From positions 1-60,874 of the IMG/VR virus record IMGVR_UViG_3300012913_000002: 60,874 nucleotides of DNA; one strand, 5' to 3'. The position numbers were made by a program, and so were the translations under genes. Source of the stretch: a virus. Its lineage: Duplodnaviria > Caudoviricetes. The notes beneath the pieces are model-generated. The model did not search any database, was not told the DNA's origin, and saw nothing but the letters and a program-made list of their open reading frames with translations. This document shows, in pieces, positions 5,857 through 60,874 of the stretch. The stretch's first letter is position 1; each line of letters starts with the position of its first letter.

Positions 5857-6000
5857 GTGAGAACGGTCAAGCACAACCCGGACGACGCCGCCGAGGTGGC
5901 GGCAGTCCAGACACCACCCGGGGAACCGGATGGTGTACTCGTCGACCCGGAAAGCATTGACGGGGACGACGAATCGGTGGAGGAGGTGGTTCCCGAATGA
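5857..6000 (+). CDS. Small acidic hypothetical protein (47 aa)
   Basis: GTG start after GGGAGA; its TGA overlaps the endolysin ATG. Confidence 0.4.
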   Translation: MRTVKHNPDDAAEVAAVQTPPGEPDGVLVDPESIDGDDESVEEVVPE

Positions 6001-6905
6001 TGCTGACCCAGTTGGCGAACGTGGCCCGCCGCACTGGCTACCCGGTGATCGAGGTGCCGGGCTGGAAGACCAGGACCCGGCCGGGCGGGATGAGCAGCGT
6101 GCAGACCGTCACCTGCCACCACACCGCGAACGGCGGTGCCCGGGGAAACTACCCGAGCCTGCGAGTGGTTCGTGACGGGCGGCCCGGCCTGCCGGGGCCG
6201 CTGGCCCAGTACGGGCTCGGTCGGGACGGCACAGTCTTCGTCATCGCTGCTGGCCGGTGCAACCACGCCGGAGTGTCGCTGAAGACCGCCTACACCAACT
6301 CCAACGCGATCGGCATCGAGGCCGAGGCCGTGGGAGTGCCCGGCACCGAGGGCGACTGGCCCGCCAGGCAGATGGACTCCTACGCCCGGCTGTGCCTGGC
6401 CCTGGTGGAGGAGTTCGGCGCGGTTCAGATCGCAGACGTACTGGGGCACAAGGAGACCTGCTCCCCCAGGGGGCGCAAGTCCGATCCTTCGTTCAGTATG
6501 CCGAAGTTCAGGGAACGGATCGGCAACCTGACATCGGTGAAGAAACCCGTAAAGCCCACCCCAGCAAAGGATTTCATCGACATGGCAACTCAGGCAGAAG
6601 TCGAGGCAGCAGTCGTCAAGGGCGTCCTCAAGGTTCTCCAGACGGAGCAGATTGTCCCGAACGTTCCCACCCCGACGCAGGTCGCGGCCGACCCGAAGGT
6701 GAAGACCACCTACTACACACCGGTCGGTGCCTGGGCGAACATCGAGAAGGACCAGGACGTCGACCGGGACGCGACGAAATCGGACCGGGACAACCTCCGC
6801 ACGCAGGTGGCCGCGCTCGACTCGGCCGTGCGTGCCCTTACCACACAGGTGGCGGAACTGAGCGCTAAACTGAGCCCGCCTTCCACGCCTACCAAGGAGA
6901 ACTGA
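5997..6905 (+). CDS. Endolysin, N-acetylmuramoyl-L-alanine amidase (Amidase_2)
   Basis: TCHHTA, GPLAQY, IAAGRCNHAG, IGIEAE and VLGHKE...RKSDP zinc-amidase motifs. Confidence 0.9.
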   Translation: MMLTQLANVARRTGYPVIEVPGWKTRTRPGGMSSVQTVTCHHTANGGARGNYPSLRVVRDGRPGLPGPLAQYGLGRDGTVFVIAAGRCNHAGVSLKTAYTNSNAIGIEAEAVGVPGTEGDWPARQMDSYARLCLALVEEFGAVQIADVLGHKETCSPRGRKSDPSFSMPKFRERIGNLTSVKKPVKPTPAKDFIDMATQAEVEAAVVKGVLKVLQTEQIVPNVPTPTQVAADPKVKTTYYTPVGAWANIEKDQDVDRDATKSDRDNLRTQVAALDSAVRALTTQVAELSAKLSPPSTPTKEN

Positions 6906-6907
6906 TC

Positions 6908-7141
6908 ATGAGTGACGCCATTCCGAACTACCGCAAGAGCACGTTCTGGGCCGACTGGTTCGAGCGGGTCGCCTGGACCGCCGTCCAGGCCGGTGTCGGG
7001 GCCGTTTCCTACGCCCAGTGGGACGCCCCGCTCTGGTCGGTGCCGATCATCGCCGCTGGCCTGTCGGCCATCAAGGGGTGGGTCGCCCGTAAGGCCATCG
7101 CCGCGAACGAGGACAGCGCCAGCACGGTGCCCGGCGTCTGA
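6908..7141 (+). CDS. Holin (r1t-like)
   Basis: 77 aa, 'FWADWFERVAWTAVQA' signature, two TM segments, directly after the endolysin. Confidence 0.8.
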   Translation: MSDAIPNYRKSTFWADWFERVAWTAVQAGVGAVSYAQWDAPLWSVPIIAAGLSAIKGWVARKAIAANEDSASTVPGV

Positions 7142-7156
7142 CCCAGTCCGCACCAC

Positions 7157-7189
7157 AGAGCCCGGCCAGTCCTCCGCTGGCCGGGCTCT
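7157..7189 (+). terminator. Intrinsic terminator-like hairpin closing the lysis cassette
   Basis: AGAGCCCGGCCAG-7 nt-CTGGCCGGGCTCT. Confidence 0.7.
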
Positions 7190-7193
7190 TGCG

Positions 7194-7223
7194 TTGTCAT
7201 GAGGTTGTCAAGTCTGCTATGGT
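7194..7223 (+). promoter_or_regulatory. Promoter of the conjugation-like operon with two 11-bp-phased TTGTCA boxes
   Basis: TTGTCA(7194)-18 nt-TATGGT, second TTGTCA at 7205; GGAGG RBS before ATG 7262. Confidence 0.6.
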
Positions 7224-7261
7224 GTTAACAACATAGCGCATGACACCCACGGAGGAAACCC

Positions 7262-7543
7262 ATGCTTACGCAAGTGATGATCCTGGCTGAGCCGACGCTC
7301 AGCGCGGCCGAGACCAAGAAGTCCCTGATGGGTCTGATGCTGATCGCCATCAGCCTGGTCCTGGCCTACCTCACCCTGAAGGCCCTGCTCGGCCCGGCCC
7401 AGGGTGGCGACTACAACCGCACGCTCAAGATCGGGCTCGCCAGTGTGCTGGCGATGATCCCGCTCGGGCTCGGAGCCAGCGCCGTCGTGGCGATGGGCTA
7501 CGGCGAGGCCCTGATGAAGTTCGGCATCGGGCTGATCTCCTGA
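7262..7543 (+). CDS. Small hydrophobic protein, VirB2/TcpD-like pilin candidate
   Basis: 93 aa, two long TM segments, first gene of an operon containing a VirB4-like ATPase. Confidence 0.5.
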   Translation: MLTQVMILAEPTLSAAETKKSLMGLMLIAISLVLAYLTLKALLGPAQGGDYNRTLKIGLASVLAMIPLGLGASAVVAMGYGEALMKFGIGLIS

Positions 7544-37106: not shown

Positions 37107-38774
37107 TCATGCTGTGATCAACTCCTTGAACTCGTCGGGCAGTTTCGTGCGGGGCATTCCGAGGCGCAGGAGGGTGGTCCAGTCCTCGGCGGTGTTCTCC
37201 TCCTTGTTGTCGGCCGGGTCCGGAGTCCAGTAGGCCTGTATCTCCTCGGCGATGCCATTGTCGATCTGAAGTGTGGTGCGGCCTTTCAGATCCTCCGGGA
37301 TGTCCCGGCCAATGGAGGAGTTGCCGAACACCATCTTGGCGGCGTCGGCGGTGATGCCGCCGACCGCCGCACGTCCCTGGAGGTTGTCCCGGGCCGCTCC
37401 ACCGAACCAGGATGCGTCCGGGCGCTGGGTGCCGATGATCAGGTGGATGCCGCACAGCCGGGCCATGGCCAGCACGCGCATGATCTTGCGGTGAGCCGGG
37501 GAGAACTTCCCGCTCTGCTTGTACGGCTTGCCGTCCTCGTCCCGGGCATCCCCGGCCCAGTAGTCAAGCATCCGGTACACCCACTCCTCGAACTCATCGA
37601 GGATGACGATCCGCCTGCGGTGAGCACTGAAGGGGATCTTCTTGTGCTTGCGCAGTCGGTAGCGATTCATCATGTCCTCGTACAGATCGAAGGCCATGTC
37701 CCAGAGTTCGTCATCCTCAGAGTAGATCCCGAGCACTCCATCCCAGCCCTCAAACCCCAGCAGTTCCACCAGTTTCGGGTCAGCGAGCATCAACTCGGTG
37801 CCCTTGTCCTTCCTGGCCGTGTCAATCGCAGCGCAGACCAGGGAGCGCATCAGGGCGGTCTTGCCAGCGTTCGTCCGGCCAATGATCAGGATGTGACTGG
37901 TGACGTTGAGGTTGAAGTGGTGGCCGGGTGCTACCGGAAGAATGTTCCAGGGCCGGTCCGGGTCGAAGCCAGGGTGGTGAATCTTGTCAGGCAACTGCGG
38001 ACGCCGGGTGAAGCGCACCATGTCATTCTTGGTGTCCCACACCGGCATCCAGCGGTCGCCGAGTTTCGCCTGGATCTTCAGCAGGGCCTCGTACTGCTTG
38101 TCGTCCTTGTGGTCCTCGAAGCCGGTTCCCTTGTAGAAGACGCTGAAGCCGTCCATGCCCACGACGTCGCACACGTTGACCTGCCCGGCATTGCCGACCA
38201 GTTCCCGGAATGCCTCCTCGATCCGCTCAGTGTCGAGTTCGGGTTCGGCTGGTTGGTCGGGCTCTGCCTTCGGAGCCGATTCTGTCGGAATGACTCTCCG
38301 GGGGCGGCGGCGTCTCCAGCCTTTCTGGACCAAATAAGTGCCGAATGCCGCGCCGATGGACAAGCCCGACCACTGCAACCAGTCCATGGCTTCTGCATGG
38401 TCCTGCCGGAACACCTCCTGCCAGGTGTAGCCCGAGAGCATGATCGTGCCGGAGGCGTAGGTGAAGAAGGGTTTCCAGTTACGCGGCACACGGTTTCGCC
38501 GGGCGCGAGCCTGAGCCTCCTTGCGGGTCTTCTTCTTGTGGCAGGAGTTGATCCAGGTGGAACCCTTCGGCGCACACAGTAACTGGAGGTTCGCAGGATC
38601 GCTGCGCTGCTCGGGAGTACTCTCCACCTCCGGCACGATGTGGTCGATCTGGAGAGCGTTGCGCACGAAGTACTTCCGGCATCCGTCGCACTGGAACTTG
38701 CTGGGATGCCTCGGGTCCTGGCGAGCGTCGAAGATCGCCGTGCGGACCTGCGGATCAATCTTGGTCAGGCTCAC
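37107..38774 (-). CDS. HNH nuclease - TM - FtsK/SpoIIIE ATPase fusion (TcpA/TraB-like DNA translocase)
   Basis: CDGC...IDHIVP...NLQLLC...CHKKKT (HNH); two hydrophobic segments; HILIIGRTNAGKT, LADPK..EL, IVILDEF, ARLCGIHLIIGTQRPDA (FtsK). Confidence 0.85.
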   Translation of the reverse strand: MSLTKIDPQVRTAIFDARQDPRHPSKFQCDGCRKYFVRNALQIDHIVPEVESTPEQRSDPANLQLLCAPKGSTWINSCHKKKTRKEAQARARRNRVPRNWKPFFTYASGTIMLSGYTWQEVFRQDHAEAMDWLQWSGLSIGAAFGTYLVQKGWRRRRPRRVIPTESAPKAEPDQPAEPELDTERIEEAFRELVGNAGQVNVCDVVGMDGFSVFYKGTGFEDHKDDKQYEALLKIQAKLGDRWMPVWDTKNDMVRFTRRPQLPDKIHHPGFDPDRPWNILPVAPGHHFNLNVTSHILIIGRTNAGKTALMRSLVCAAIDTARKDKGTELMLADPKLVELLGFEGWDGVLGIYSEDDELWDMAFDLYEDMMNRYRLRKHKKIPFSAHRRRIVILDEFEEWVYRMLDYWAGDARDEDGKPYKQSGKFSPAHRKIMRVLAMARLCGIHLIIGTQRPDASWFGGAARDNLQGRAAVGGITADAAKMVFGNSSIGRDIPEDLKGRTTLQIDNGIAEEIQAYWTPDPADNKEENTAEDWTTLLRLGMPRTKLPDEFKELITA

Positions 38775-49588: not shown

Positions 49589-50425
49589 ATGACGACGAAA
49601 ACGAGAGAAATCGAGATCACCCGGGGCGGGACCAGCCGGGTGGGCAAGTTCGGAATGACCGTGACCATGTGCGCGGTGGTCTGCGAGCAATTCTCCTGGG
49701 CCTTTTACGTGAATGCCAAGGATGAATGGTGGGAAGGCTGCGGGAATTGCGAGAACGATTCCGGCTTCAAGCCCTGGCACGCCGGAGTCTATGGCGGCGT
49801 CTGCTTTCAGTGCGGTGGCGTCGGAGTGCGCCGGGTGGCCGGATCGGAGGCCATTCTCCGCCAGATCATCCGCCGCAGAGTTTCCAGCCGCCTCTCCAAA
49901 TTGAATGCGGCGGAAAGGGCCGAGGAAGCGCAACTGGCCCGCGCGGAGGCATATGCAGTTGCCCATCCGAACCTCGCTTCGGACCTGGCGCGCATCCGCG
50001 TCAGCGAGGAACTGGGTGGCAACGTTCTGGCCCGCTTCGCGCTAACGCTGCTGCGTCAGCCGCTCAGTGTGCGGCAGCAGGCCTACGCTGTTTCGCTGCT
50101 CGCTGAGCGAGCGTGGGACGAGGCACACACTAACGCTGACACTGTGGAGGAGCGTTACGTGGGCAACGTTGATGAACGGATCACCGTGTCCGGCAGCGTC
50201 AGCGTTGCGCACTACTGCGCCACCGAACGCTACGACCGCACGTCCACGATGCTGATCGTGGTGAAGACCGCAGCGGGCGCAACGCTGAAGATGAACACCG
50301 CCGCAGCGTGGGCCTTCAACGTCAGCGTTGGCGACGAGATCACCGTCAGCGGCATCGTCAAGAAGCATGAGGAGAACCGGTACGGCAAGCAGACCGTGCT
50401 GACCCGCCCGAAGAAGGAGAAGTGA
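49589..50425 (+). CDS. Zn-finger plus C-terminal OB-fold-like protein
   Basis: CGNC...GVCFQCGG; YVG.VDERITV.G.V...GDEITVSGIVKKHEE..YGKQTVLTRPK. Confidence 0.55.
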   Translation: MTTKTREIEITRGGTSRVGKFGMTVTMCAVVCEQFSWAFYVNAKDEWWEGCGNCENDSGFKPWHAGVYGGVCFQCGGVGVRRVAGSEAILRQIIRRRVSSRLSKLNAAERAEEAQLARAEAYAVAHPNLASDLARIRVSEELGGNVLARFALTLLRQPLSVRQQAYAVSLLAERAWDEAHTNADTVEERYVGNVDERITVSGSVSVAHYCATERYDRTSTMLIVVKTAAGATLKMNTAAAWAFNVSVGDEITVSGIVKKHEENRYGKQTVLTRPKKEK

Positions 50426-50966
50426 TGGAGATCGGCAAGGAGGAGGCGCTGCGCCTGCTGATGCAGACCAGCGACAACAACCAGGCAGCGGGCGGCCGGA
50501 TCGGCGGGCCGTGGGCCAATGAGGGCTACAGCCGGGAGAACGCCCTGGTCATCGCCTCGCGCTGCACCTACTTCCAGCGCATCGAGTGGCAGCGGATGCC
50601 CGCCGTCCGGGCGATCCTGCCCGGCTACGGCGACCACGTCTGGTACCTCAACCTCGACGCACCGAAGGAGGACCCGTGGACCTGATCGATCTGGCGAGGT
50701 TCCTGCTGATGGCCACCATGCTGACCTGGACGGTCGGCACGATCGCCTACATCTCGACGGCCAGGACCAACAGGGAGAGTTGGGCTCGGCTGGCGAAGGC
50801 CGTGCCGATGGCGATCCTGATCCTGGCGCTGATGTGGACGATCAGGTCGTGAACCGGCTGCTGATCGTGGTGCTCTGGCTCGCCTACGCCGCGCTGGCGC
50901 TCGGCCTGGCAGTCGTCAGCCTCCGAATCCCCGGATGAGTATAATTCAGGGTGCTAGAATTATAGA

Positions 50967-51413
50967 ATGACTGAGCCCCTGAAGCGATGCCCCCGCTGTG
51001 ACCAGCGGAAACGCCCCACCGCGTTCTACGTGAACAGGAAGGCCAAGGACGGCCGCTCTTGCTACTGCAAGAGTTGCCAGCAGCAACTGGTGGCTGAACG
51101 GAAGGCGGCCGAACCCGACAAGGTCCGGCTGTCCTCCGTGAAGGCTCACATCAAGCGCAAGTACGCCATGACCTGGGAGGAGTACCTCGACTGGTACAAC
51201 CGGCAGGCCGGGAACTGCAAGATCTGTGGCACGCATTTTCCTCTTCTGATCCTGTACGGACTTCATGTGGATCACTGCCACAAGACCGGCCGGATTCGCG
51301 GCCTGCTCTGCCGGGACTGCAACACCGGCATCGGCCTGCTCAAGGACGACCCGGATCGACTCCAAGCCGCCATCGCGTACCTGAAGCCTGAGATCCCGTC
51401 CGGGGAGAACTAG
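50967..51413 (+). CDS. Recombination endonuclease VII family protein (second copy)
   Basis: QAGNCKICG...LHVDHCHKTGRIRGLLCRDCNTGIG. Confidence 0.85.
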   Translation: MTEPLKRCPRCDQRKRPTAFYVNRKAKDGRSCYCKSCQQQLVAERKAAEPDKVRLSSVKAHIKRKYAMTWEEYLDWYNRQAGNCKICGTHFPLLILYGLHVDHCHKTGRIRGLLCRDCNTGIGLLKDDPDRLQAAIAYLKPEIPSGEN

Positions 51414-51461
51414 TCGAACGATGGACTAGTTCGGACTTGACAGTAGGAGTACGCTCGGCTG

Positions 51462-51590
51462 TGCGGTTCACTTCAAGCGCGACGAGCGTTTCCGGAAGGA
51501 GCGCAGGCCGGACGGGATGCAGTCGGCAGACGCTGGGTGGACCGGGTGGGGCAGGATTGAGGATTCAGTTCCTCTCCTGCCCCACCCTCA
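51462..51590 (+). ncRNA. Candidate structured small RNA
   Basis: ORF-free gap; TACGCT -10-like hexamer at 51450; nested stems and a long terminal hairpin (see findings). Confidence 0.35.
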
Positions 51591-51924
51591 TCTCACCTCG
51601 ACCCACACCGCCGCCGCAGGCCAGCGCACCGGCTCCGGGCGCATCGCCAGATGCTTGTACCGCCACCATTCGGTCTCGGTCACCACGTCCAGCACCAGGG
51701 TCAGGGCCGACGTGCGCAGTTCGCCCCACGCACGGAAGTCGTGGTGACTGCCGGACTCGTTGACGAGGATCAGCCTCCGTCCACGCAGGTTTTCCACCCG
51801 GCCGACCATGTCGGCACGGTCCCAGTGACGCAGCGTGACTGGAGGCAGGGGATCGGGGCGGGTGTCCGGCGACTGGTTCATGGGCGCATTCTCTCCTGTC
51901 AAGCCCAGCCGGAACCAGGATTCT

Positions 51925-52205
51925 GGGTGTCACAAGATCGTTCTAAACGATCTTGGAACGCACTTGACGAGCCCGGCCACTTCGGCTCCGCCTCCAGATC
52001 CGGATGATCTTGTGACGCTCTGGCCAGCATTTTCGGTTGGGTGTCACAGGTGTCACAGCACTTTTATTGGAAATTTTTTGAGAATCCTCACGTGGGCTGA
52101 ATCTGAAGGCTGTGACACCTGTGACACCCAGAGTTGATCAAGGAATTGTGTGACGCAGTTCACACTGGGGTGCATACCAGGCTCAACTAGTGCAAATCGG
52201 ACACA
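51925..52205. other. Putative origin-like element B, homologous to 16560-16790
   Basis: GGGTGTCACAGGTGTCACAGC...T-rich...CCTCACGTGGGCTGAA...GCTGTGACACCTGTGACACCC at 52039-52129. Confidence 0.65.
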
Positions 52206-52259
52206 CCTCGATCTGGGCCTAGTCGACAAGCGCTTGTCAAGTCAACTAGACTGCTGGGC

Positions 52260-53389
52260 ATGAAACCATCGAAAATCGTCACACTCCGTGAGATCCAGTG
52301 GATAGACATCCAGCCGGATGGCCGGGATGTTCCGCGCAGCGGGCATATATGGGCTCCAGCGGCCCCTGTTGCCGGTTCTACGGCCTTCTGGGTAGTCCCC
52401 GGTGTGATGGGCCAGGGAGCAGATTCTGAGCCCGCAGAAGCGATCCTCGTGGCTCGCAGCAGCCGCAGGCACCTGTGTGGCCGGGCTTACCGGATCAGGA
52501 GGCGCTCGGTCACCGGGCAGATGGAGTGGCGGGACATGTGGAACCCCACCGGGGGCCGCTTCGTGGACAAGGGCGAGTGGTTCCGCGAGACCGATCCGCG
52601 CTCACGCTTCAACCGCACCTACCGCCCGCCGAGGCACGCGCCGTTCACGAAGCGGGCGAACGAGGTGGAGTTGAGTCTCTTCGAACAGGTGTGCGAGAAG
52701 GTGGCGGCCGGTGCCGACATCGACTTCACGGTGAAGGCCGCCGACGCGGCCAACGTTGCCGATCTGGCACGCAACGCTGACTCGGACGCAACGCTGTGAG
52801 CCGCGCAGCGTTGCCCCCGGTGCCCGCAACGTTAGGCACCCCGGCCGAGTACGACCACACAACGTTCGCCAGAACGTGGCCCGAGCGTAGACAGACCTAC
52901 GTTGCGCCCACGCTGCCGGAGCCGGTTCAGCGTGCGACCGAGATTAGTGTGGCCGATCCGATGCCACGCAACGCTAAGACGATGGCAACGCTGGGCCACG
53001 CTCGTGGCTGGAGCGTGCGGATCACACACGCTGTCGGCTACGACATGAACAGCGACGGATCGCAGAAGACGCGCGACATCGAGGAGCCGACCGGTGCCAT
53101 GACGCCGGGTGGAAAGAAATCCGCACCGCGTCCGCAGATGCACAAGATCGGCGAGGAACTGCTTCCACCTGCCGAATCGATCCGGGTGATCGTAGTTGCC
53201 CCAGGCAATAAACTGTTCGTGGGCCATTGGAAAAACAATGGCTGGGATTTCGGGCTTATTCTTGACGGGCGGACGCTGGTCAGGAATTGCAATTGGACCC
53301 AGTTGAAGGAGGCGCTCGATGCCGAGGGCCGGGAGGATCTGCGCGACACGCAACTGCCCTTACAAGGCGACGACGGGAAACCGTTGTGA
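52260..53389 (+). CDS. Two hypothetical proteins (52260-52799, 52796-53389)
   Basis: Coupled ORFs after TCGACA-18-TAGACT promoter. Confidence 0.55.
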
Positions 53390-53762
53390 CGAATGCGCGA
53401 AGGAATATGAGGAGAATCGTGGAACGAGACAGAGCCGTGGGTACGACAAGGCTTTCGATGCGGCCAGGAAGAAGGCCGAGCCGAAGGTCGAGACCGGCGA
53501 GGTGGTCTGCTGGCGCTGCGGGGAGAAGATCTCTCGCGGGCAGGAGTGGCACCTCGGCCACCGCGACGACGGATCGATCGGCGGCCCGGAGCACGCACGC
53601 TCCTGCAACCTGCGGGCGGCCGGGCTCAAGACGGCTGGCCGGGACTGGACGCCAGCAGCCGCCAGCGCGCCGCTGTCGCGTGATCTGCGGGCGGCGAGGG
53701 TGATGGCCCAGGCGAAGGCCGAGCGAGCCGCAGAGCGACGGAGGCGGCGTCGTGGCGAATGA
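53319..53762 (+). CDS. HNH endonuclease-like protein
   Basis: CWRCG...WHLGH...GPEHARSCN; GGAGG RBS. Confidence 0.7.
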   Translation: MPRAGRICATRNCPYKATTGNRCDECAKEYEENRGTRQSRGYDKAFDAARKKAEPKVETGEVVCWRCGEKISRGQEWHLGHRDDGSIGGPEHARSCNLRAAGLKTAGRDWTPAAASAPLSRDLRAARVMAQAKAERAAERRRRRRGE

Positions 53763-53979
53763 GGACAAGCGCCGGATCAGGGAACTGCTGGACGAGATCG
53801 AGCAGTTGTCCGGCTGGCGCGTGCGCCGGATAGACGTGTCCGGCAAGCATTCGACGATCTACCCGCCGGACGGCCAGCCGCTCATCAGCGTGCCGAACAG
53901 CCCGAGCGACTGGCGCTGGCGCAAGAATCTGAGATCGCAACTACGCAGGTGCGGCTGGACCGGCACACTGCTCGACTGA
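53752..53979 (+). CDS. HicA-like toxin / dsRBD-fold RNase
   Basis: GWRV...SGKHSTIYPPDG...ISVPNSPSDWR. Confidence 0.6.
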   Translation: MANEDKRRIRELLDEIEQLSGWRVRRIDVSGKHSTIYPPDGQPLISVPNSPSDWRWRKNLRSQLRRCGWTGTLLD

Positions 53980-54020
53980 GAGACTGGCCGGGCTCCTTCG
54001 TAGTGGTGGCGCAGGAAGCG

Positions 54021-54056
54021 CGAAAGGCCCCGACCAGAGTTGGTCGGGGCCTTTCG
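54021..54056. terminator. Bidirectional terminator
   Basis: CGAAAGGCCCCGACCA-GAGT-TGGTCGGGGCCTTTCG between convergent genes. Confidence 0.75.
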
Positions 54057-54496
54057 TTCGTTCAGGTCAGCAGGAGCCGCCCGGACGGGTCGGCTTGCAG
54101 ACGCTGGTGGCCGACGCGGGCGCGGCCGACACGGCGACCATGCCGAGGACGGCGGAACCGGCGAGCAGGATGGTGGCGATCTTGTTCATGCGGGATGCAC
54201 TCCTTGTGTTGGTGGAGTCCCAATTGTCCCACAAGATCACCACCACGGGTCCTCCTGCGCCCACTTTTCCAGCGTCTTCCGATCGGTCGGATACGGGCGC
54301 AGCGGATGCTCGGCCAGGTCGCGCTCGGCCTGCTCCCTGGTGGGAGCGTCGTCCGGGTAGCGGTCGATCATGATCTTCCTAACCGTTGTAGGGATTGTCC
54401 TCTTCGACGTAGTACGGGGACTCCTCGCAGGTCGAGTCCTCGCAGTCGCCCTGGTCGTCCAGTTCGTTGCCGCAGGCCGGGCAGTCCTCCTTCGGC

Positions 54497-54811
54497 TCAG
54501 TCACGGTCCAGTCCCCACGCCTCGCGCACCAGGTACTGATGGCGGGTGATGCTCGGGCCGTAAAGCGTCTCGACGACGACATCGCTGCCGTCGTTGCACA
54601 CCCAGCCGATCGGAGTGCCGTAGGACAGGACCAGGTAGGCGATTCCGTACGTGTGAGCGTCGGCGTAGTAGTGCGTCGCGTCCGTCGAATGCCAGAGAGG
54701 CGTGGGGGCCTTGAAGTACTTGCCCTTGTCCTCGGGGGCGAACCCCTTGAGTCCGTCGATCTCGATCGGCTCGCCGTTGCGGATCTTCTGTGCGGCGTCG
54801 CGGATGTCCAT
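54497..54811 (-). CDS. Hypothetical protein, paralogue of 56644-56964
   Basis: YGIAYLVLSYGTPIGW...YGPSITRHQ. Confidence 0.6.
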   Translation of the reverse strand: MDIRDAAQKIRNGEPIEIDGLKGFAPEDKGKYFKAPTPLWHSTDATHYYADAHTYGIAYLVLSYGTPIGWVCNDGSDVVVETLYGPSITRHQYLVREAWGLDRD

Positions 54812-55182
54812 CAGTTGATCTTCTCCTCGATGTGCGCCGGGTCGATGCCGAGCGCGTGGCAGATGGCGTTGATCTTGGCTTCGGTCTCCTCCGCCTCCTC
54901 GTGGGTCCAGGAGTCCGGCAACAGCCAGGCCACGAAGTGCGCGGCCAGCGCGATCGTGAGCAGGAAACTGCTGACCATCCCGTAGACGGCGATCCAGCGA
55001 GCGGTCGCGTTGATCGGCGGCAGATTGCCGTAGCCGACCGTGGTGGCGGTCTGCACGATCCAGTCGACCGCGAGCCCGCCCTCCAGGTTGTTGGTCCTGC
55101 TGTAGGCGACGGCGCAGATCACCGAGTTGATGATCATGATCAGGGCCACTGCCCGGCCGGACCGGGCGATCCGCTCGATCAT
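54811..55182 (-). CDS. Miniature 2-TM potassium channel (KcsA/Ion_trans_2-like)
   Basis: TM1, pore helix DWIVQTAT, selectivity filter TTVGYG, NLPP, TM2; 123 aa. Confidence 0.85.
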   Translation of the reverse strand: MIERIARSGRAVALIMIINSVICAVAYSRTNNLEGGLAVDWIVQTATTVGYGNLPPINATARWIAVYGMVSSFLLTIALAAHFVAWLLPDSWTHEEAEETEAKINAICHALGIDPAHIEEKIN

Positions 55183-56643
55183 GATGCGTTCTCCTTCATC
55201 CAGGTGCGGATGGCGGCCAGGGTGGGCGAGAGGAATTGCTCATCACCAATCGGCGTGCCGTAGTAGGCAGTGACCACGGAATGGATCTTGCTTTCGTCGT
55301 AGGTCAGGTAGACCCACATCATCGGGGTGCCCTCGCCAGCGCCCCGGATCAGCCGGATCGACCTGTCGTTCGAGTAGAGCAGTACACGCTTGGTGAACTC
55401 GAACTCCTTGGCCAGGGCGAGCACTTCGTCGCGGACGGTCATCAGGCACGCTCCAGTTCGCTCGGCTTGTAGTCGCCGAGCGTGCGGTCGTTGGCGTCGA
55501 CCACGCCGACCTCGTACTGCAAGCCGACGAACGGCAGCACGTAGCCGTAGATCCCGTCCACCGTGCCGGTGGCCTCCCTGCCTGCGAACGGCGTGCCGTC
55601 CTTCTGCTTGACCGTGCTGCCGATCGGGAACGCGGCCAGCACTTCGTCTCTCGTCACAACGTTTCTCCTTCGGGCCAGTAGGACGCGGGGAGGCTCATCG
55701 CCATCGCCGCGATGATCTCGATGCCGTCCACCAGGATCGGCTGTTCCTTGCCGTCTTCGAGCAGCCAGTACTTGGCGTTCAACTCGAACGGCTTCTCGGG
55801 TTCCGGGTCGAACAGGTCGCTGGTTGCCATCAGGTGACCTTCCAGTCGGAGCCGACCGGGCGGATGTTGCCGGGCGTGGCCCGCATCGTCCAGCCCTTGC
55901 TGATCACCTTGGACTTCTGGCCCTTGGTGTTGGTGTCGCTGGTGACGGTGCCCATGACGCCGCAGTTGCCGAGGGTGTCGCGGCTGTTCCAGTCCTGGTG
56001 GTCGAGCGTGAAGGCGATCCACTGGCCGGAGCCGTAGGACACTTCGACGTATCGGGTCTGCTCGATCAGCGCCTTCTCGCGGGCGTTGAAGTACTTGCGG
56101 TTAGGCATCGCAGGTCTCTTTTCCGTTCGTGGCGTGATACCAGGCGAACAACCTGGCGGGGTTCTCGTTGTCGACGGTCGCCCGGATCTCTCCGGTGCAG
56201 CCGTCGCACTCGGCGGTGGCGTAGGCGCTGGATGGTTTCGGCGTTGCCTTCATGTCTTGATACTCTCACCTTGTCAAGCGATTGTCAACTGATTGTCTAC
56301 TACCGGTGCCAGCCAATCGACTGGCACCGTCTGTGTCACCAGAAGATGTCGACCACGTACCGGCCCGGCTGGATGTGGCCGTTCGCCGCGAGCCAGGCGA
56401 ACATGGTTGACGGGTGCGGATATTCGTTTTCGAAGTCGAGGAACGACTTCATCTTCTTGGCGTCGTACTCGTCGAGCGGCTTGCCGTTCGGCAAGAATTC
56501 GTGCTGCTCGTAGTTGCCGTACTCGCCAGCGGCGATCACGCTCCATTCACGTCCGGTCAACTCCTGGACGTACTGATCCAGGTCGATGTAGTCCACCTGC
56601 TGGCTGATGGTCGTCTTCACTTTCAATGGCATCGCAGGTCTCC

Positions 56644-56964
56644 TCAGAGGAACTCGCGCCAGGCGTTCTTGACTGCGTACTGATGCTGGGTGGTGGTGGG
56701 TGAGTAGATGACGTCCGGGCAGCGGCGCACGTCCGGGTTCCCGGTGCTCCAGGCGATCGGCGTGTCGTACGACAGGACCAGGTAGCGGATGCCGTACTTC
56801 TCGGCGTCCGCGAAGTACTGATCCTGCGCGCTTTTCGGCATCTCGCCGACGTACTGGTACTTGCCGTCGCTGTGCGGCAGGATCGCCCGCAGGTTGTTGG
56901 CGTCGAACGTGCTCAGGTTGTGGATGTAGTCGTTCGCGTCCCGGACGAGGATGCGCTGGCTCAT
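56644..56964 (-). CDS. Hypothetical protein, paralogue of 54497-54811
   Basis: YGIRYLVLSYDTPIAW...YSPTTTQHQ. Confidence 0.6.
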   Translation of the reverse strand: MSQRILVRDANDYIHNLSTFDANNLRAILPHSDGKYQYVGEMPKSAQDQYFADAEKYGIRYLVLSYDTPIAWSTGNPDVRRCPDVIYSPTTTQHQYAVKNAWREFL

Positions 56965-56980
56965 GATCTTGCCTTTCGCC

Positions 56981-57036
56981 GTGCCCAAGCGGGCTGTGGT
57001 TGGTTACTACTGCCGGGCGACTTGTGCCGCCCGGCA
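56981..57036 (-). repeat. Intergenic hairpin cassette copy 1 (56 bp identical to 58307-58362)
   Basis: GTGCCCAAGCGGGCTGTGGTTGGTTACTACTGCCGGGCGACTTGTGCCGCCCGGCA. Confidence 0.9.
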
Positions 57037-58306
57037 AGGCCTTTCAGGGATCAGCCGCTCAACTCCGTCTCGGTTGCCTGGCAGCGGATTCCCTGGTGGT
57101 TCCAGAGGATGCCGACAGCCCGTTCGAGCGGATCGCTCTGGGGCGGAAGACGGTTGCCGCAGCGATGGCAGTTGATCGTGCCGTCGCTGTTCACGTCCTT
57201 GACCATGTGCTCGGGGATCTTGACCGGCCCGACCCCAGGGATGTCGATCTCGACCCGCTTCATCGTGCGGTCCGCACGAACGTCTCGAAACCGTCTACCT
57301 CGCAGGCGAGCCGGGCTCCGGCCACTTCCTGCTCGGTCCAGTCGCTGATGTCGATGGTGGCGCGCTGTCCGCCGCCCGCGATGACCATGATTGCCATGAT
57401 TGACCTTTCGTTGGGGACCAGCGTCATCTGGTCCGAGTGCGAGGCGGCGCTGCTTCGATGCTGACCCGCTCGCTCCTTGCTCTGGGTAGTACGTTACTCG
57501 CTTGTCAACTCCTTGTCAACTCAGTCTGTGTGCTGCGATGATCCGGTCGATCCGGCCGTGAATCTCGTTGCGGCGCTTGGCCTGGTCGCGCTTCACCAGC
57601 CGTGCCGCCGCCTGGTCCATCTCGCGGCGCAGGCCGATCGACGTCCACGCCCGGACGATCTCGGTGCCGCACTTGACACCCTTGCTCGTTGGCTGGTCGT
57701 AACGCATCAGCGTCACCTTGCCGATCTTGCGCATGGCCCCGTCCACGACACTGCCGGGGACGGGTGCGCAGTTGGCTTCGTAGGTGACCATCAGGGCTTC
57801 GGCCGGATGCGGCTGTAGGTGCTGTCTTCCTTGTACTGGTAGGCACTGACGGGCAGGTCCCCGTGCAGGACCATTCCGATGAATGCCCGTCCGTACATCC
57901 TGAATTCGTGGCCATCGACCCGCACGACGTACCAGCCGTTCGGCTTGATCCCACCGATCTCCAGGTCTTCGCGGGTGAGCGTCCGCATCAGAGGTTGCGG
58001 TTGGTGAAGTAGTAATCGTCACCGTGTACGGCCTTGCCGATGTTCATCACCAACCACGCGGTCATGTCCATCCCGACGCCGTTGACGATGAACCCGTCAT
58101 GCTTGCGATCGACCTTCAGATCGGTGTCGTCCGCCAGGCTGCGCAGGTAGCGGGTGTCGCTGTCCACGATCATGACCACGTCGATGACGCGCTTCATGCC
58201 GGACTGCGAGACGTGACGGACGATGGTGTAGAGCGTGGTGCCCTTCGGTGCTGCCTTCAGCAGGTTCCAGGCGTACGACTTCTCGCTCATGGTCTTACCT
58301 TTCGTT

Positions 58307-58362
58307 GTGCCCAAGCGGGCTGTGGTTGGTTACTACTGCCGGGCGACTTGTGCCGCCCGGCA
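58307..58362 (-). repeat. Intergenic hairpin cassette copy 2
   Basis: Identical to 56981-57036. Confidence 0.9.
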
Positions 58363-58461
58363 GGGACGTTGGTGGCTGATCAGACCATGATGTTCACGGC
58401 CCTCCTTCCGTTGGTGTCTCTGTGCTGCTGGGTAGTACGCTACTCAGTTGTTAAGCGTTTG

Positions 58462-59082
58462 TCAACCCCTTCCGGCCTGCCGCCGCACGCTGGCGGCAAC
58501 TCTGATCATGGTCTCGCGCCACACGGTCCAGGTGACCGCTTGCATCTGTGACGGCGTGATCCCAGCCTCGGCGGCAGCCTTGCGGTATGCCGTTGCGTAC
58601 GCCTCGTATTGCCCCTTGCGTCCGAGTGCCGTCACTTCGGACTCGGTGGCCTGGCGACCGTGAGCAACGCTCATTGCGTGACGGTCGATCACCACATCAT
58701 GCGTGTTGGTCGGATCGGCGATCACCAGAGCGAAAGCCGTTGTCTTGGGTGCCTTCAGTGTTTCGACGACGTCCGCGCCGTTGTAGATGGCGTCAGCCTT
58801 GCGAACCGACATCCCGAGGCAGCCGGACGAGATGCCACCTTCGGCATAGGTGCGGATGGCCAGTGTCTGATTGCGTGCCCAGTCCATCTGTGGCGACAGT
58901 GCGCTGATCACGCCAGCGGCACGGAGCACACTGTGGTCGGCCGATCGAGCCAGCGTCACGGCCAGAGCGTGAGCCTCTGCGTACCAGGCCATTCCGTCCG
59001 CTCGCTGTGCGTCGGACGCCTTGCGGTAGAGGCTGAGGATGTTCTCGGCCAGTGTGTCGATGTCCAGCGCCGTTGTCGTCAT
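58462..59082 (-). CDS. Phage protein with DNA-glycosylase/HhH-like motifs (DUF7178-like)
   Basis: GMAWY, AAGVISALSPQ.DW..N, KT.AF, VVIDRHA, PSQMQAVTW. Confidence 0.55.
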   Translation of the reverse strand: MTTTALDIDTLAENILSLYRKASDAQRADGMAWYAEAHALAVTLARSADHSVLRAAGVISALSPQMDWARNQTLAIRTYAEGGISSGCLGMSVRKADAIYNGADVVETLKAPKTTAFALVIADPTNTHDVVIDRHAMSVAHGRQATESEVTALGRKGQYEAYATAYRKAAAEAGITPSQMQAVTWTVWRETMIRVAASVRRQAGRG

Positions 59083-59130
59083 GAGTAGTACGCTATCCTT
59101 CCATGTGGTGACTTGTCAAGCGGTTGTCAT

Positions 59131-59182
59131 GCGGCTTGGATGCTACTGCCGGGCGACTTATGCCGCCCGGCAGGGCCTTTCA
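59131..59182 (-). repeat. Intergenic hairpin cassette copy 3
   Basis: GCGGCTTGGATGCTACTGCCGGGCGACTTATGCCGCCCGGCAGGGCCTTTCA. Confidence 0.85.
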
Positions 59183-59356
59183 GTTACGGAGGCGAGGGTC
59201 GACGTTCCACATCGGCATGTTCGTTTCGACATGCCAGCCGCAACCGTCATGAGCGAACGTGCCAGCATCAGGGCAGTTGGCGCGCTCTAGGTCATCGTCC
59301 TCCGGCTCGCGACCCATTGCCTCAGTGAAGCGCGTTTTGGTGATACGTTCGCTCAC
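59180..59356 (-). CDS. 58-aa Cys/His-containing protein (not in the ORF track)
   Basis: VSERITKTRFTEAMGREPEDDDLERANCPDAGTFAHDGCGWH...; GTGA overlap; stop lies inside the cassette. Confidence 0.55.
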   Translation of the reverse strand: MSERITKTRFTEAMGREPEDDDLERANCPDAGTFAHDGCGWHVETNMPMWNVDPRLRN

Positions 59357-59606
59357 TTCGCAGGCTCCATCGTTTCGATGCGACCGGCCGCACTCAGCGT
59401 CATGGTGACCATGTCGCCGTTACGCATTCCACGGTTGCCGAACCCGTAGCACCATGCCGCGTCACTCTGGCTGGTACGCATCTCGCCGTCATCGAACGCG
59501 ATGCGGTAGCGCGGGTTTCCGTTGACACTGCTGTTGAGCCGTTCGCTTGCCACAATGCGAGCCGTCACGGTCTGCTTGGCCATTGTCTTGCCTCTCGATA
59601 GAGGGG

Positions 59607-59653
59607 TTGGATGCTACGGCCAGGCGACTTGTGCCGACTGGCCGGGCTTTTCA
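59607..59653 (-). repeat. Intergenic hairpin cassette copy 4
   Basis: TTGGATGCTACGGCCAGGCGACTTGTGCCGACTGGCCGGGCTTTTCA. Confidence 0.85.
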
Positions 59654-59869
59654 CTTCTCTTGCGCGTCCCACATCCGGACGACATCGTTGCAGAAGTTGA
59701 CTGACACCATGACCGATGCGATCTTGCCAGCGGCGAGGATGTCGAACACCTCGGGCGGCATCTTGAGTCGAGGCGACAGGTTGAACCTTCCGCCATCGGC
59801 TTGCACGATGCGGACCGTGCCGCCTTCCGTTTCGGTCATCTGTGCGATGTCGAACCGCATCTCAGCCAT
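59651..59869 (-). CDS. Small protein, duplicate of 60234-60458
   Basis: RFDIA...GTVRI.Q.DGG.F...ASVMVSV.F...VVRMWDAQEK shared. Confidence 0.7.
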   Translation of the reverse strand: MAEMRFDIAQMTETEGGTVRIVQADGGRFNLSPRLKMPPEVFDILAAGKIASVMVSVNFCNDVVRMWDAQEK

Positions 59870-60184
59870 CAGAACTCCTCCACCTTGACGCCCATGCGCG
59901 GCCCGAACTCAAGCCGTGCGTACGGGTCGCCGTACGAAATGCCGTCCCATGCTCTGGCATCGAACAGATCGGCCCAAGATGCCGGGCCGCCGCCGTAACC
60001 ATCGGCCAGGATGTAGTCGTGGCCCGAGGCGCGAGCCTCGCGCTTGTAGTACGCCTTGGCTTCCTCGATGTTGGCGAACGTGTTCTGCTTGCTCGGTGGC
60101 TCCGGGTACGGATTGGTGCGACCGAACGTCTGAAACGATGCGTGGATCTTGCTCGGATGGCGCATGACGTGCCCCTTAGGTAGT

Positions 60185-60236
60185 GCGGCTTGGATGCTAC
60201 GGCCAGGCGACTTGTGCCGACTGGCCGGGCCTTTCA
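60185..60236 (-). repeat. Intergenic hairpin cassette copy 5
   Basis: GCGGCTTGGATGCTACGGCCAGGCGACTTGTGCCGACTGGCCGGGCCTTTCA. Confidence 0.85.
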
Positions 60237-60458
60237 CTTCTCTTGCGCGTCCCACATCCGGACGACACTGTTCGTGAAGTCGACGGACACCATGACCGAC
60301 GCAACCTTGCCCTTGTCCATGATGTCGAACACGGCATCCGGAATCGCCAGCCGTGGGCGGAGCACGAACGATCCGCCATCGTGTTGCATGATGCGTACGG
60401 TCCCGTTCTCGTCGCCGATGATTGCTGCGATGTCGAACCGCTTTTCAACGTTGGCCAT
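60234..60458 (-). CDS. Small protein, duplicate of 59651-59869
   Basis: Same motifs as 59651-59869; identical C-terminal VVRMWDAQEK. Confidence 0.7.
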   Translation of the reverse strand: MANVEKRFDIAAIIGDENGTVRIMQHDGGSFVLRPRLAIPDAVFDIMDKGKVASVMVSVDFTNSVVRMWDAQEK

Positions 60459-60874
60459 TGCCTTGCCTCTCAGTTGAGTGGGTAGCGCTTGAGTGTGTCG
60501 ATGGCTTCATCGACGGTCATGCCGCTTTCGATCATGGTCACCCGGACATCCTGTCCTGTCGGCACGCTGGGATCGTTGCGCCGCATCTCGTCCACGATGC
60601 TTTCGATGGCGCTGCACAGGTGACCGTATGCCTGGTCCTGGCCTGCGGTGAGCCCGTTCGCCACGTTGATCCTGTACTGCATGGTGTCCAGCGTCATGGC
60701 GTACGCCAGCAGTTCCTTGTTCGTGAGCCGGGCCATCAGATGTCTCTCCAGTTCGGGCAGTCGAAGGGCTCGAAGCCGCCCCTGTCGACCCAATCGTGCA
60801 GGTCTTTGCGTAGCCATCGCGCCTCTTCCAGGTCGCCATCTGCGACTGCCTGCCGCAATGCCGCGAGCGTTGCA

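Follow-up and report, generated by a model that had tools for sequence, protein, structure and literature searches.

Relationship to known small K+ channels

Small K+ channels encoded by phages are a known kind and had been annotated as such by 2018. K+ channel genes in Myrna, Phabba, BillNye, nine Vibrio phages and others are reported in the available part of Greiner et al. 2018 (PMC6163359), whose supplementary tables may list more and whose criterion for a viral K+ channel is the sequence G(Y/F)GD. Phage channels of the family PHROG 14690 are 119-125 amino acids (aa) long, are encoded in a setting of small accessory genes, and share a first transmembrane helix (TM1), a pore helix, the filter sequence T-x-G-Y-G, a second transmembrane helix (TM2) and an acidic tail starting [WF]-T-[HD]-x-E-Q-E. 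The gene considered here, located at 54811-55182 on the minus strand of IMG/VR virus record IMGVR_UViG_3300012913_000002, encodes a divergent protein that resembles these channels in length, setting and layout. The whole record, a linear contig of 60,874 bp that is ~78% complete (CheckV), is called the window, and the gene product (P0001) is called the window protein. The gene and the elements of its product are as follows.

54811-55182, minus strand: channel gene P0001, 123 aa plus stop (list of open reading frames (ORFs), Pfam, PHROG 14690, GC content at third codon positions (GC3))
55090-55158, minus strand: TM1, residues 9-31 (AlphaFold2 helix)
55042-55080, minus strand: pore helix, residues 35-47, with D40, W41 and Q44 at the positions of KcsA W67, W68 and E71 (AlphaFold2; KcsA alignment)
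55024-55044, minus strand: filter signature T47-T48-V49-G50-Y51-G52, then N53 (translated sequence)
54922-55008, minus strand: TM2, the inner helix, residues 59-87, with R62 as the equivalent of KcsA R89 (AlphaFold2; KcsA alignment)
54814-54918, minus strand: predicted cytoplasmic tail, residues 89-123, starting P-D-S-W-T-H-E-E-A-E-E, with two helices (AlphaFold2)

The reading frame is confirmed as a genuine gene. Its GC content by codon position (0.56/0.45/0.95) follows the pattern expected of a true gene at a genome GC of ~64%, and a syntenic homologue is carried by a metagenome contig, L074, with 73% identity in the protein, 80% in the DNA and a ratio of non-synonymous to synonymous change (dN/dS) of 0.43. 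A crude gene caller that ranks by length-weighted GC3 preferred an ORF on the opposite strand (54467-54985; GC3 0.75), which is longer than the channel ORF. This was rejected as evidence against the channel gene because the length-weighted ranking is flawed. Two other metagenome runs carry small shares (0.08) of the stretch as short contigs, of which one of 225 nt spans 54806-54952 with one difference and another joins 54362 to 54806; all this was too fragmentary to build on.

The product is soundly identified as a minimal pore of the K+ channel type with two transmembrane helices (2TM). Ion_trans_2 (PF07885) was the sole Pfam family above its cut-off (residues 21-87; 28 bits against a cut-off of 22.5; E 2e-6), and the Pfam scan of the window protein found no RCK, cyclic-nucleotide-binding or voltage-sensor domain. 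PHROG 14690 was matched over residues 2-111 (profile positions 4-116 of 122; E 2.9e-14), though as the weakest of the 38 members scanned, the best of which scored 2.4e-39. An AlphaFold2 model built with a 38-sequence alignment (predicted local distance difference test (pLDDT) 90.4; predicted TM-score (pTM) 0.67) has helices at residues 9-31, 35-47, 59-87, 94-111 and 115-122, with the filter in the loop at 48-58. R4, R7 and R10 are consistent with a cytoplasmic N-terminus, and the tail is acidic. An earlier reading of this DNA from the sequence only had described a miniature K+ channel of 123 aa composed of TM1, pore helix, TTVGYG and TM2, with no RCK or voltage-sensor domain. The translation, the modelled helices, the Pfam result, the fold matches and the tetramer prediction described below bear this out, and the pore layout it gave stands. 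However, it missed the 35-residue, two-helix tail that is predicted to lie in the cytoplasm.

Structure comparisons gave the same class of protein. The best solved relatives by sequence were KcsA chains (E 2.4e-5), aligned over residues 36-85. The top 50 rows of a Foldseek search against the Protein Data Bank (PDB) were all KcsA, with probability 1.00 and, in most, a target TM-score of 0.56-0.80, the best rows having a root-mean-square deviation of ~2 A over ~92 columns; no PDB row reached E <= 0.001, the best being 2.6e-3. An independent wide search with VIA-align placed tetrameric cation-channel pores, mostly of K+ channels, in nearly all of its top 50 rows, with Z scores of 12.1 for the MthK pore, 11.9 for NaK, 10.7 for KvAP and 10.2 for KcsA; NaK, CNG, TRP, Nav and AMPA-receptor pores were also among them. 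The top match in BFVD, a K+-channel-domain protein, was from an uncultured Caudovirales phage (E 3.1e-4), and giant-virus K+ channels came next.

Though similar to the PHROG 14690 phage channels in general form, the window protein differs from them at several positions. It has Asn rather than Asp after GYG, Asp/Glu rather than Trp/Tyr at the position of KcsA residue 67, Asn rather than Glu at the end of TM1, and E-E-A-E-E rather than E-E-Q-E-E in the tail. Identity to the Myrna channel is only ~31% (tblastn E 7e-4), and the 61-kb window contig, itself ~78% complete, contrasts with the 97-235 kb genomes of the cultured phages that carry the family.

KcsA of Streptomyces lividans shares with the window protein the string T-A-T-T-V-G-Y-G, the Arg at R89 (R62 here) and a C-terminal cytoplasmic helix after TM2, at 21-31% identity. 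The turret of the window protein is ~7 residues shorter, the HMMER alignment places four gaps in TM2, leaving no counterpart of Gly99, and KcsA residues W67, E71, D80 and E51 correspond to D40, Q44, N53 and N31. The Kcv/Kesv-type channels of algal and giant viruses are likewise virus-encoded minimal pore modules, and those related to them fill BFVD rows 3-14 (probability 0.97-1.00), Tetraselmis virus 1, EsV-1-223, Tupanvirus and Pithovirus being among the sources. These are matches at the level of the fold only (E 0.03-0.3; 14-27% identity) and show nothing closer than the general pore. They are mostly shorter (78-103 aa, with a few of 121-134 aa) and belong to viruses of eukaryotic hosts. Kcv is carried in the virion membrane, which a tailed phage lacks.

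Filter surroundings, tail and conduction

What is new here is that the window protein belongs to a tiny, long-branched clade which, in databases of billions of sequences, consists of this protein and four other distinct sequences. A word-index search of 5.8 billion clusters returned only two relatives, P0002 (72% identity) and P0003 (58%), and the P0002 cluster has two more members. When an alignment of the clade was used in pattern searches, one of 255 matches in metagenome contigs was confirmed, namely L074. None of 120 was confirmed in IMG/VR, and none of 427 in one genome from each of 185,579 species, a set in which no member of the clade was found. The window protein alone gave 13 pattern matches in IMG/VR, none of them confirmed. 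NCBIfam had no family for the window protein or P0003, and the single row it returned for P0002 was at chance level. The three clade sequences included in a quick tree of 69 rows were grouped with a support of 99 on a stem of 1.16 changes per column, and were weakly attached (87) to three metagenome proteins, in which KcsA position 71 is likewise Gln. Outside fell four long channels of host type.

The clade is set apart by the residues that surround the filter. Where the published criterion for viral K+ channels has Asp after GYG, the window protein has N53, and this Asn is kept in all five clade sequences. In the KcsA alignment, W67, E71 and D80 fall on D40, Q44 and N53, so that the W67-D80 buttress, to which Glu or Val at position 71 also belongs, has no counterpart, and the combination of D/E, Q and N at these positions was seen only in the clade among 91 small filter-bearing proteins. 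The Glu that is near-invariant in the family at the end of TM1 (KcsA E51) is also Asn in the clade (N31 in the window protein). The replacement of Asp after GYG had been noticed in the sequence-only reading, which was correct on this point but gave it too little weight, as the whole W67/E71/D80 network is replaced.

Selection on the gene was measured between the window and L074. Filter codons 45, 48, 50 and 53 differ silently between the two. Amino acid changes cluster in residues 29-60, with 18 in 32 positions. The tail (residues 89-123) has two amino acid changes in 35 positions against six silent codon differences, and is the protein's most conserved segment in the clade, where T45, T48, G50, Y51 and G52 are invariant. 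The silent filter changes and the few tail changes indicate that purifying selection is preserving the filter, the Asn and, most of all, the tail. As the tail is the most strongly constrained part, it is indicated as the site of regulation.

A tetramer model had also been proposed as a check, and four copies were confidently predicted to assemble: three runs gave ipSAE values of 0.72, 0.70 and 0.71, whereas none of three controls scored above 0.00. At least 92% of contacts are common to the runs, and the partner pLDDT is 78 or more. In the prediction, the filter residues meet across the axis (48:48 and 50:50), the inner helices cross at 84:84, pore helix residues 43/47 contact TM2 residues 66-73 of the neighbouring copy, D40 contacts R62 of the neighbouring copy, and tail residues 96-118 take part in the interface, tail against tail. 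This predicted contact pattern is that of a K+ channel. In KcsA, R89 pairs with D80. From the modelled contact, D40 may be a relocated carboxylate that keeps an ion pair between subunits with R62. The further proposal that the clade is a natural homotetrameric K+ channel with a re-wired filter buttress, in which an acidic residue stands at position 67, Asn at position 80 and R62 pairs with the relocated carboxylate, is at this stage a doubtful one.

Taken together, the canonical TTVGYG, the selection on the filter, the predicted tetramer and the natural occurrence of TIGYGN in other channels count in favour of K+ conduction, and the window protein is probably a working, largely K+-selective channel that, according to the model, forms a homotetrameric KcsA-type pore in the host membrane. 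The last of these points comes from two-pore-domain K+ (K2P) channels. In the available parts of PMC5626358 and PMC11364775, the P1 pore domains of TREK-2, TALK-2 and TASK-2 read TIGYGN, with the same Asn as in the window protein, and the channels are K+ selective.

A number of observations weigh against this interpretation. In the K2P channels covered by the same parts of PMC5626358 and PMC11364775, Asn is present in only two of the four pore domains and so in two of four filter strands, the others being G-F-G-D with the Asp kept in P2, and these proteins, unlike the window protein, are eukaryotic, have four transmembrane helices and are dimeric. The residue after GYG in the 91 small filter-bearing proteins was D in 84, N in six (five of them the clade) and T in one. 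The window protein lacks equivalents of W67, E71 and D80 all at once, and the replacement of the whole network makes K+ conduction itself a question. The E71-D80-W67 triad is described as the network that controls the KcsA filter in the available part of PMC9409022. According to that of PMC8943062, Kv channels are more prone to inactivation once the W67-D80 hydrogen bond is broken, and D317N in Kv7.1, the equivalent change, abolishes conductance. Conversion of NaK (TVGDGN) to a four-site selective filter needs both changes, giving TVGYGD, in the corresponding part of PMC9822992. A literature search for KcsA D80N found no paper, and none turned up a functional measurement for the window protein or any phage member of the family. 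No RNA dataset was found for the stretch. The tetramer was judged from scores and contact lists, and the ipSAE mark (passed by 20 of 30 proteins solved as pairs and by one of 23 solved as single chains) was calibrated on two copies with other alignments, the alignment used here being outside that calibration. As the calibration differs and solved K+ channel tetramers exist, the pass may partly be model memory.

Two other roles for the protein were weighed against these data. It could be a non-conducting or permanently inactivated subunit that either poisons a host K+ channel by co-assembly, in a dominant-negative manner, or serves to anchor the conserved tail. The loss of all three network residues, the Kv7.1 result and the near-constitutive inactivation of Shaker W434F (PMC8943062, available part) are what such a subunit would lead one to expect, as are the strong conservation of the tail and the long stem of the clade. 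However, the invariance of T45, T48, G50, Y51 and G52 through silent changes would be unexpected if the ion path were useless, and the homotetramer is confidently predicted. For the co-assembly version, a further difficulty is that the sole match in five Kribbella genomes, the weak host lead discussed below, is itself weak (E 8.3e-5, in a 264-aa ORF). A dead pore is considered quite unlikely.

The second possibility is a poorly selective or constitutively leaky cation pore that depolarises the host, whether for a block to superinfection, the timing of lysis or the shutdown of host transport. NaK of Bacillus cereus, a non-selective 2TM channel with TVGDGN, has Asn after the second Gly as the window protein does and is close to it in fold (the Z of 11.9 above), and the available part of PMC9822992 links loss of the Asp and its partner to a filter of two sites (TVGDGN) rather than four (TVGYGD). 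Two acidic positions of the outer mouth are also neutral in the clade, which has Asn in place of both E31 and D53 of the family. Against this, the filter retains Tyr (TTVGYG) where NaK has Asp, making TVGYGN a natural half-way sequence to TVGYGD, and a lysis cassette of the phage's own, including membrane proteins, lies ~48 kb away. A leaky pore is judged unlikely, and a K+-selective channel remains the preferred interpretation.

If the window protein is such a channel, we infer K+ conduction, gating by the tail and an effect on the host along the following lines. The tailed actinophage would make the protein as a subunit of a homotetrameric KcsA-type cation pore, from a gene probably co-translated with small genes in a long leftward block apart from the lysis cassette. 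The subunits would insert in the host cytoplasmic membrane so that the N- and C-terminus both face the cytoplasm, with the four TTVGYG loops on the central axis forming the ion path and the inner helices crossing near residue 84 as a putative gate. The four acidic, His-containing tails (W-T-H-E-E-A-E-E plus two helices) may bundle beneath the gate, the opening of which they probably control. In KcsA, pH is sensed by His and Glu residues at the bundle crossing and, by analogy, the His-Glu-Glu cluster at the membrane edge is a candidate sensor of pH or cations. An open pore would pull the host membrane potential toward the K+ equilibrium potential, with K+ moving down its gradient, and this is presumably its use in infection. 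Possible benefits, which the sequence does not separate, would be to keep the membrane energised, to restore K+ after injection or to block a second infection. Superinfection exclusion, counter-defence and conditioning for DNA transfer were all suggested in the sequence-only reading, and the genomic context favours none of the three.

For channel biophysics, the protein is a natural variant with other residues in place of the Asp after GYG, the Trp behind the filter and the outer-mouth Glu, and with a filter still under selection. Small and easily expressed, it offers a test case for what the filter buttress does. If it conducts, nature would have arrived independently at another way of holding a four-site filter open, and the protein would be a system with which to probe the purpose of the W67-D80 bond; if it does not, the phage would be using a dead pore as a poison or scaffold. 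The finding also places the family in a mid-sized soil actinophage of ~60-80 kb, beyond the phages of ~100-500 kb. Cultured relatives exist in phages of Mycobacterium smegmatis and Streptomyces, and testing any member would be useful for phage biology.

Distribution of the family

A search with the window protein against 1.84 billion representative sequences gave 105 matches at E <= 1e-3, three at <= 1e-10 and one at <= 1e-30. An alignment of 38 of the small matches was made, and all 38 members match PHROG 14690. T48, G50, Y51 and G52 are invariant across the 38 sequences, and TM2 is followed by the motif D-x-D-x-[WF]-T-H-E-E-Q-E and then a helix, often with L-G-[IV]-x-P. The window protein has this motif as W92-T-H-E-E-A-E-E, with Ala for the Gln of the family, followed by the helix at 94-111.

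When a central member of the family (P0019) was compared with cultured phages, it matched 35 records under 20 phage names. The carriers include Mycobacterium phages Myrna (gp260) and Phabba, Streptomyces phages BillNye (gp111), Wakanda, Muntaha and Circinus, Acinetobacter phage ME3, Aeromonas phages LAh_6/8/9, and Pseudomonas phages phiPsa397 and ventosus. In the five cultured phages whose neighbourhoods were read, the channel gene is among small accessory genes. The sequence-only reading described minimal viral K+ channels as uncommon in phages; these records and the phages named in the available part of Greiner et al. 2018 (PMC6163359) show that the kind is not a novelty.

In IMG/VR, 72 of 461 pattern matches were confirmed as genes of the K+ channel type. 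All 72 have Asp after GYG, though the pattern permitted Asn. Twelve are mini-channels with the tail motif, 11 of them on contigs of 107-517 kb and one on a contig of 45 kb.

The family is not confined to phages, as it is also found in a few bacterial chromosomes. Among 401 sampled genomes of one bacterial class, 285 have some match to a K+ channel pore, a tally that includes eight genomes flagged as unpublished; nine have a full-length match to the family at E <= 1e-39 and two more have one at ~1e-32. The three bacterial loci that were inspected have ordinary cellular neighbours, namely genes for glutathionylspermidine synthase, EamA, enolase and GNAT proteins.

Two observations on annotated relatives were made in passing. 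RefSeq names the 119-125-aa relatives in the cultured-phage records, as well as L075:3995-4354 and L172:3010-3381, 'cAMP-dependent Kef-type K+ transporter', a name that comes from PHROG 14690; a length of 119-125 aa leaves no space for a cyclic-nucleotide-binding or Kef domain, so this looks like an annotation error that has spread. In an actinobacterial chromosome (G023; L176:6669-8958), the family channel gene lies ~450 nt downstream of a gene of the glutathionylspermidine synthase family (PF03738; E 1.9e-141), and in Aeromonas phage LAh_8 (L174:2504-4637) a DUF1190 gene and genes annotated as glutathionylspermidine synthase come directly after the channel gene. The linkage may be recurrent, though no glutathionylspermidine synthase gene was found in the window.

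Phage contig and gene neighbourhood

The contig is from a tailed actinophage of soil. Forty window proteins were scanned against PHROG, many giving no match, and those identified were a tail protein, a tape-measure/transglycosylase-like protein, a primase, an exonuclease, an FtsK/HNH protein, an endolysin (5997-6905), an endonuclease VII, a minor tail protein and an endonuclease. The attribution of the channel to a phage in the sequence-only reading is thus well founded, the IMG/VR record having genes for tail, endolysin, primase, exonuclease and endonuclease VII. Judged by the primase, the nearest cultured phages have Microbacterium, Brevibacterium, Gordonia and Mycobacterium as hosts, and the identity of only 30-36% indicates a new actinophage lineage. 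Megablast of window positions 50000-60000 against 50,697 phage records gave no match. At the DNA level the stretch is best represented in a run from a soil metagenome, perhaps the one it came from. Features in the vicinity of the channel gene are listed below.

55191-55196, minus strand: Shine-Dalgarno-like AAGGAG, 8 nt 5' of the ATG, within the 3' end of the upstream gene (upstream sequence)
55179-55442, minus strand: upstream 87-aa gene, overlapping the channel start (ORF list; L074 synteny)
54497-54811, minus strand: downstream 104-aa gene, overlapping the channel stop (ORF list; L074 comparison)
54067-60817, minus strand: leftward block of tightly packed small genes that includes the channel gene and extends to the contig end (ORFs, gene calls)
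54021-54056, no strand assigned: perfect 16-bp GC-rich hairpin between convergent gene blocks (folding)

The channel start overlaps the stop of the 87-aa upstream gene (ATGA, read from the sequence), and the channel stop TGA and the ATG of the 104-aa downstream gene have one base in common (TGATG). Both overlaps are consistent with translational coupling, and with the tight packing of the leftward block they agree with the coupling within a small-gene operon that had been proposed from the sequence. The upstream gene is kept in synteny on L074 (72% identity; dN/dS 0.32), its product having no match in the PHROG and Pfam scans. The downstream gene is 73% identical to its L074 counterpart (dN/dS 0.38) and its product has a weak phrog_32689 match. 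Proteins matching phrog_12365, phrog_3842/DUF7178 and phrog_32689 are encoded in the block, and L074 repeats the gene order of the window beside a homologue of the window HNH endonuclease gene.

These features bear on whether the channel might be a host gene, acquired with the host flank of a prophage or through a mis-assembled chimera, so that it is simply bacterial cargo. The presence of the family in bacterial chromosomes, with full-length matches in 9 of the 401 genomes and two further ones, and the ordinary cellular neighbours at three of the loci are the points in favour of this. However, the channel gene overlaps its neighbours at start and stop and is embedded in a block of small genes of phage type, the gene order is repeated beside the HNH endonuclease homologue on the independent contig L074, and the clade has no member in the one-genome-per-species set. 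Neither an integrase nor a host housekeeping gene was found in the scan of 40 window proteins. A bacterial origin of this kind is very improbable, and the gene is taken to be the phage's own.

The endolysin gene is directly followed by two genes for membrane proteins, which together make up a lysis cassette (5997-7543) ~48 kb from the channel gene, and a holin or lysis role for the channel was rejected on this basis. For the catalytic domain of the endolysin (5997-6905, plus strand), and for that domain only, nine of the 11 top genome rows were Kribbella (51-55% identity). As the domain is widespread across phyla at 41-50% identity, Kribbella is only a weak host lead.

The leftward block stops 11 nt short of the hairpin, and the rightward block that faces it ends at 53979. 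A 131-nt stretch with the hairpin folds at -69 kcal/mol (z -5.1), and none of 200 shuffled sequences folds as well. The hairpin is likely to be a bidirectional terminator that ends the leftward block. A promoter and terminator scan of 53500-60874 found one promoter-like and three terminator-like sites, all on the plus strand and neither count exceeding that in shuffled sequences. No minus-strand terminator-like site was found inside the block, which is weak evidence given that the counts are not above those of shuffles.

Several other small genes in the block were noted. The last of them (54067-54189, minus strand), 11 nt before the hairpin, encodes a 40-residue pre-peptide with a typical signal peptide ending A-S-A, then a 13-residue mature part with two Cys, and is conserved in L074 with six substitutions; the product may be a small secreted phage peptide, perhaps with a disulfide loop. 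The 104-aa gene downstream of the channel (54497-54811, minus strand) and the gene at 56644-56988 (minus strand) encode paralogous small proteins that share Y-G-I-x-Y-L-V-L-S-Y-x-T-P-I-x-W followed by H-Q-Y, both with a weak phrog_32689 match and no Pfam match. A Cys-rich ORF of 67 aa (54379-54582, minus strand), between the 104-aa gene and a 44-aa gene, is absent from L074, and a contig from run X2 joins 54362 to 54806, leaving out both this ORF and the 104-aa gene. The gene content directly downstream of the channel thus varies among relatives. Elsewhere in the window, the gene at 37107-38774 (minus strand) encodes a 555-aa protein with a match to an HNH endonuclease (residues ~22-101) and one to an FtsK/SpoIIIE-like ATPase (residues 287-520).

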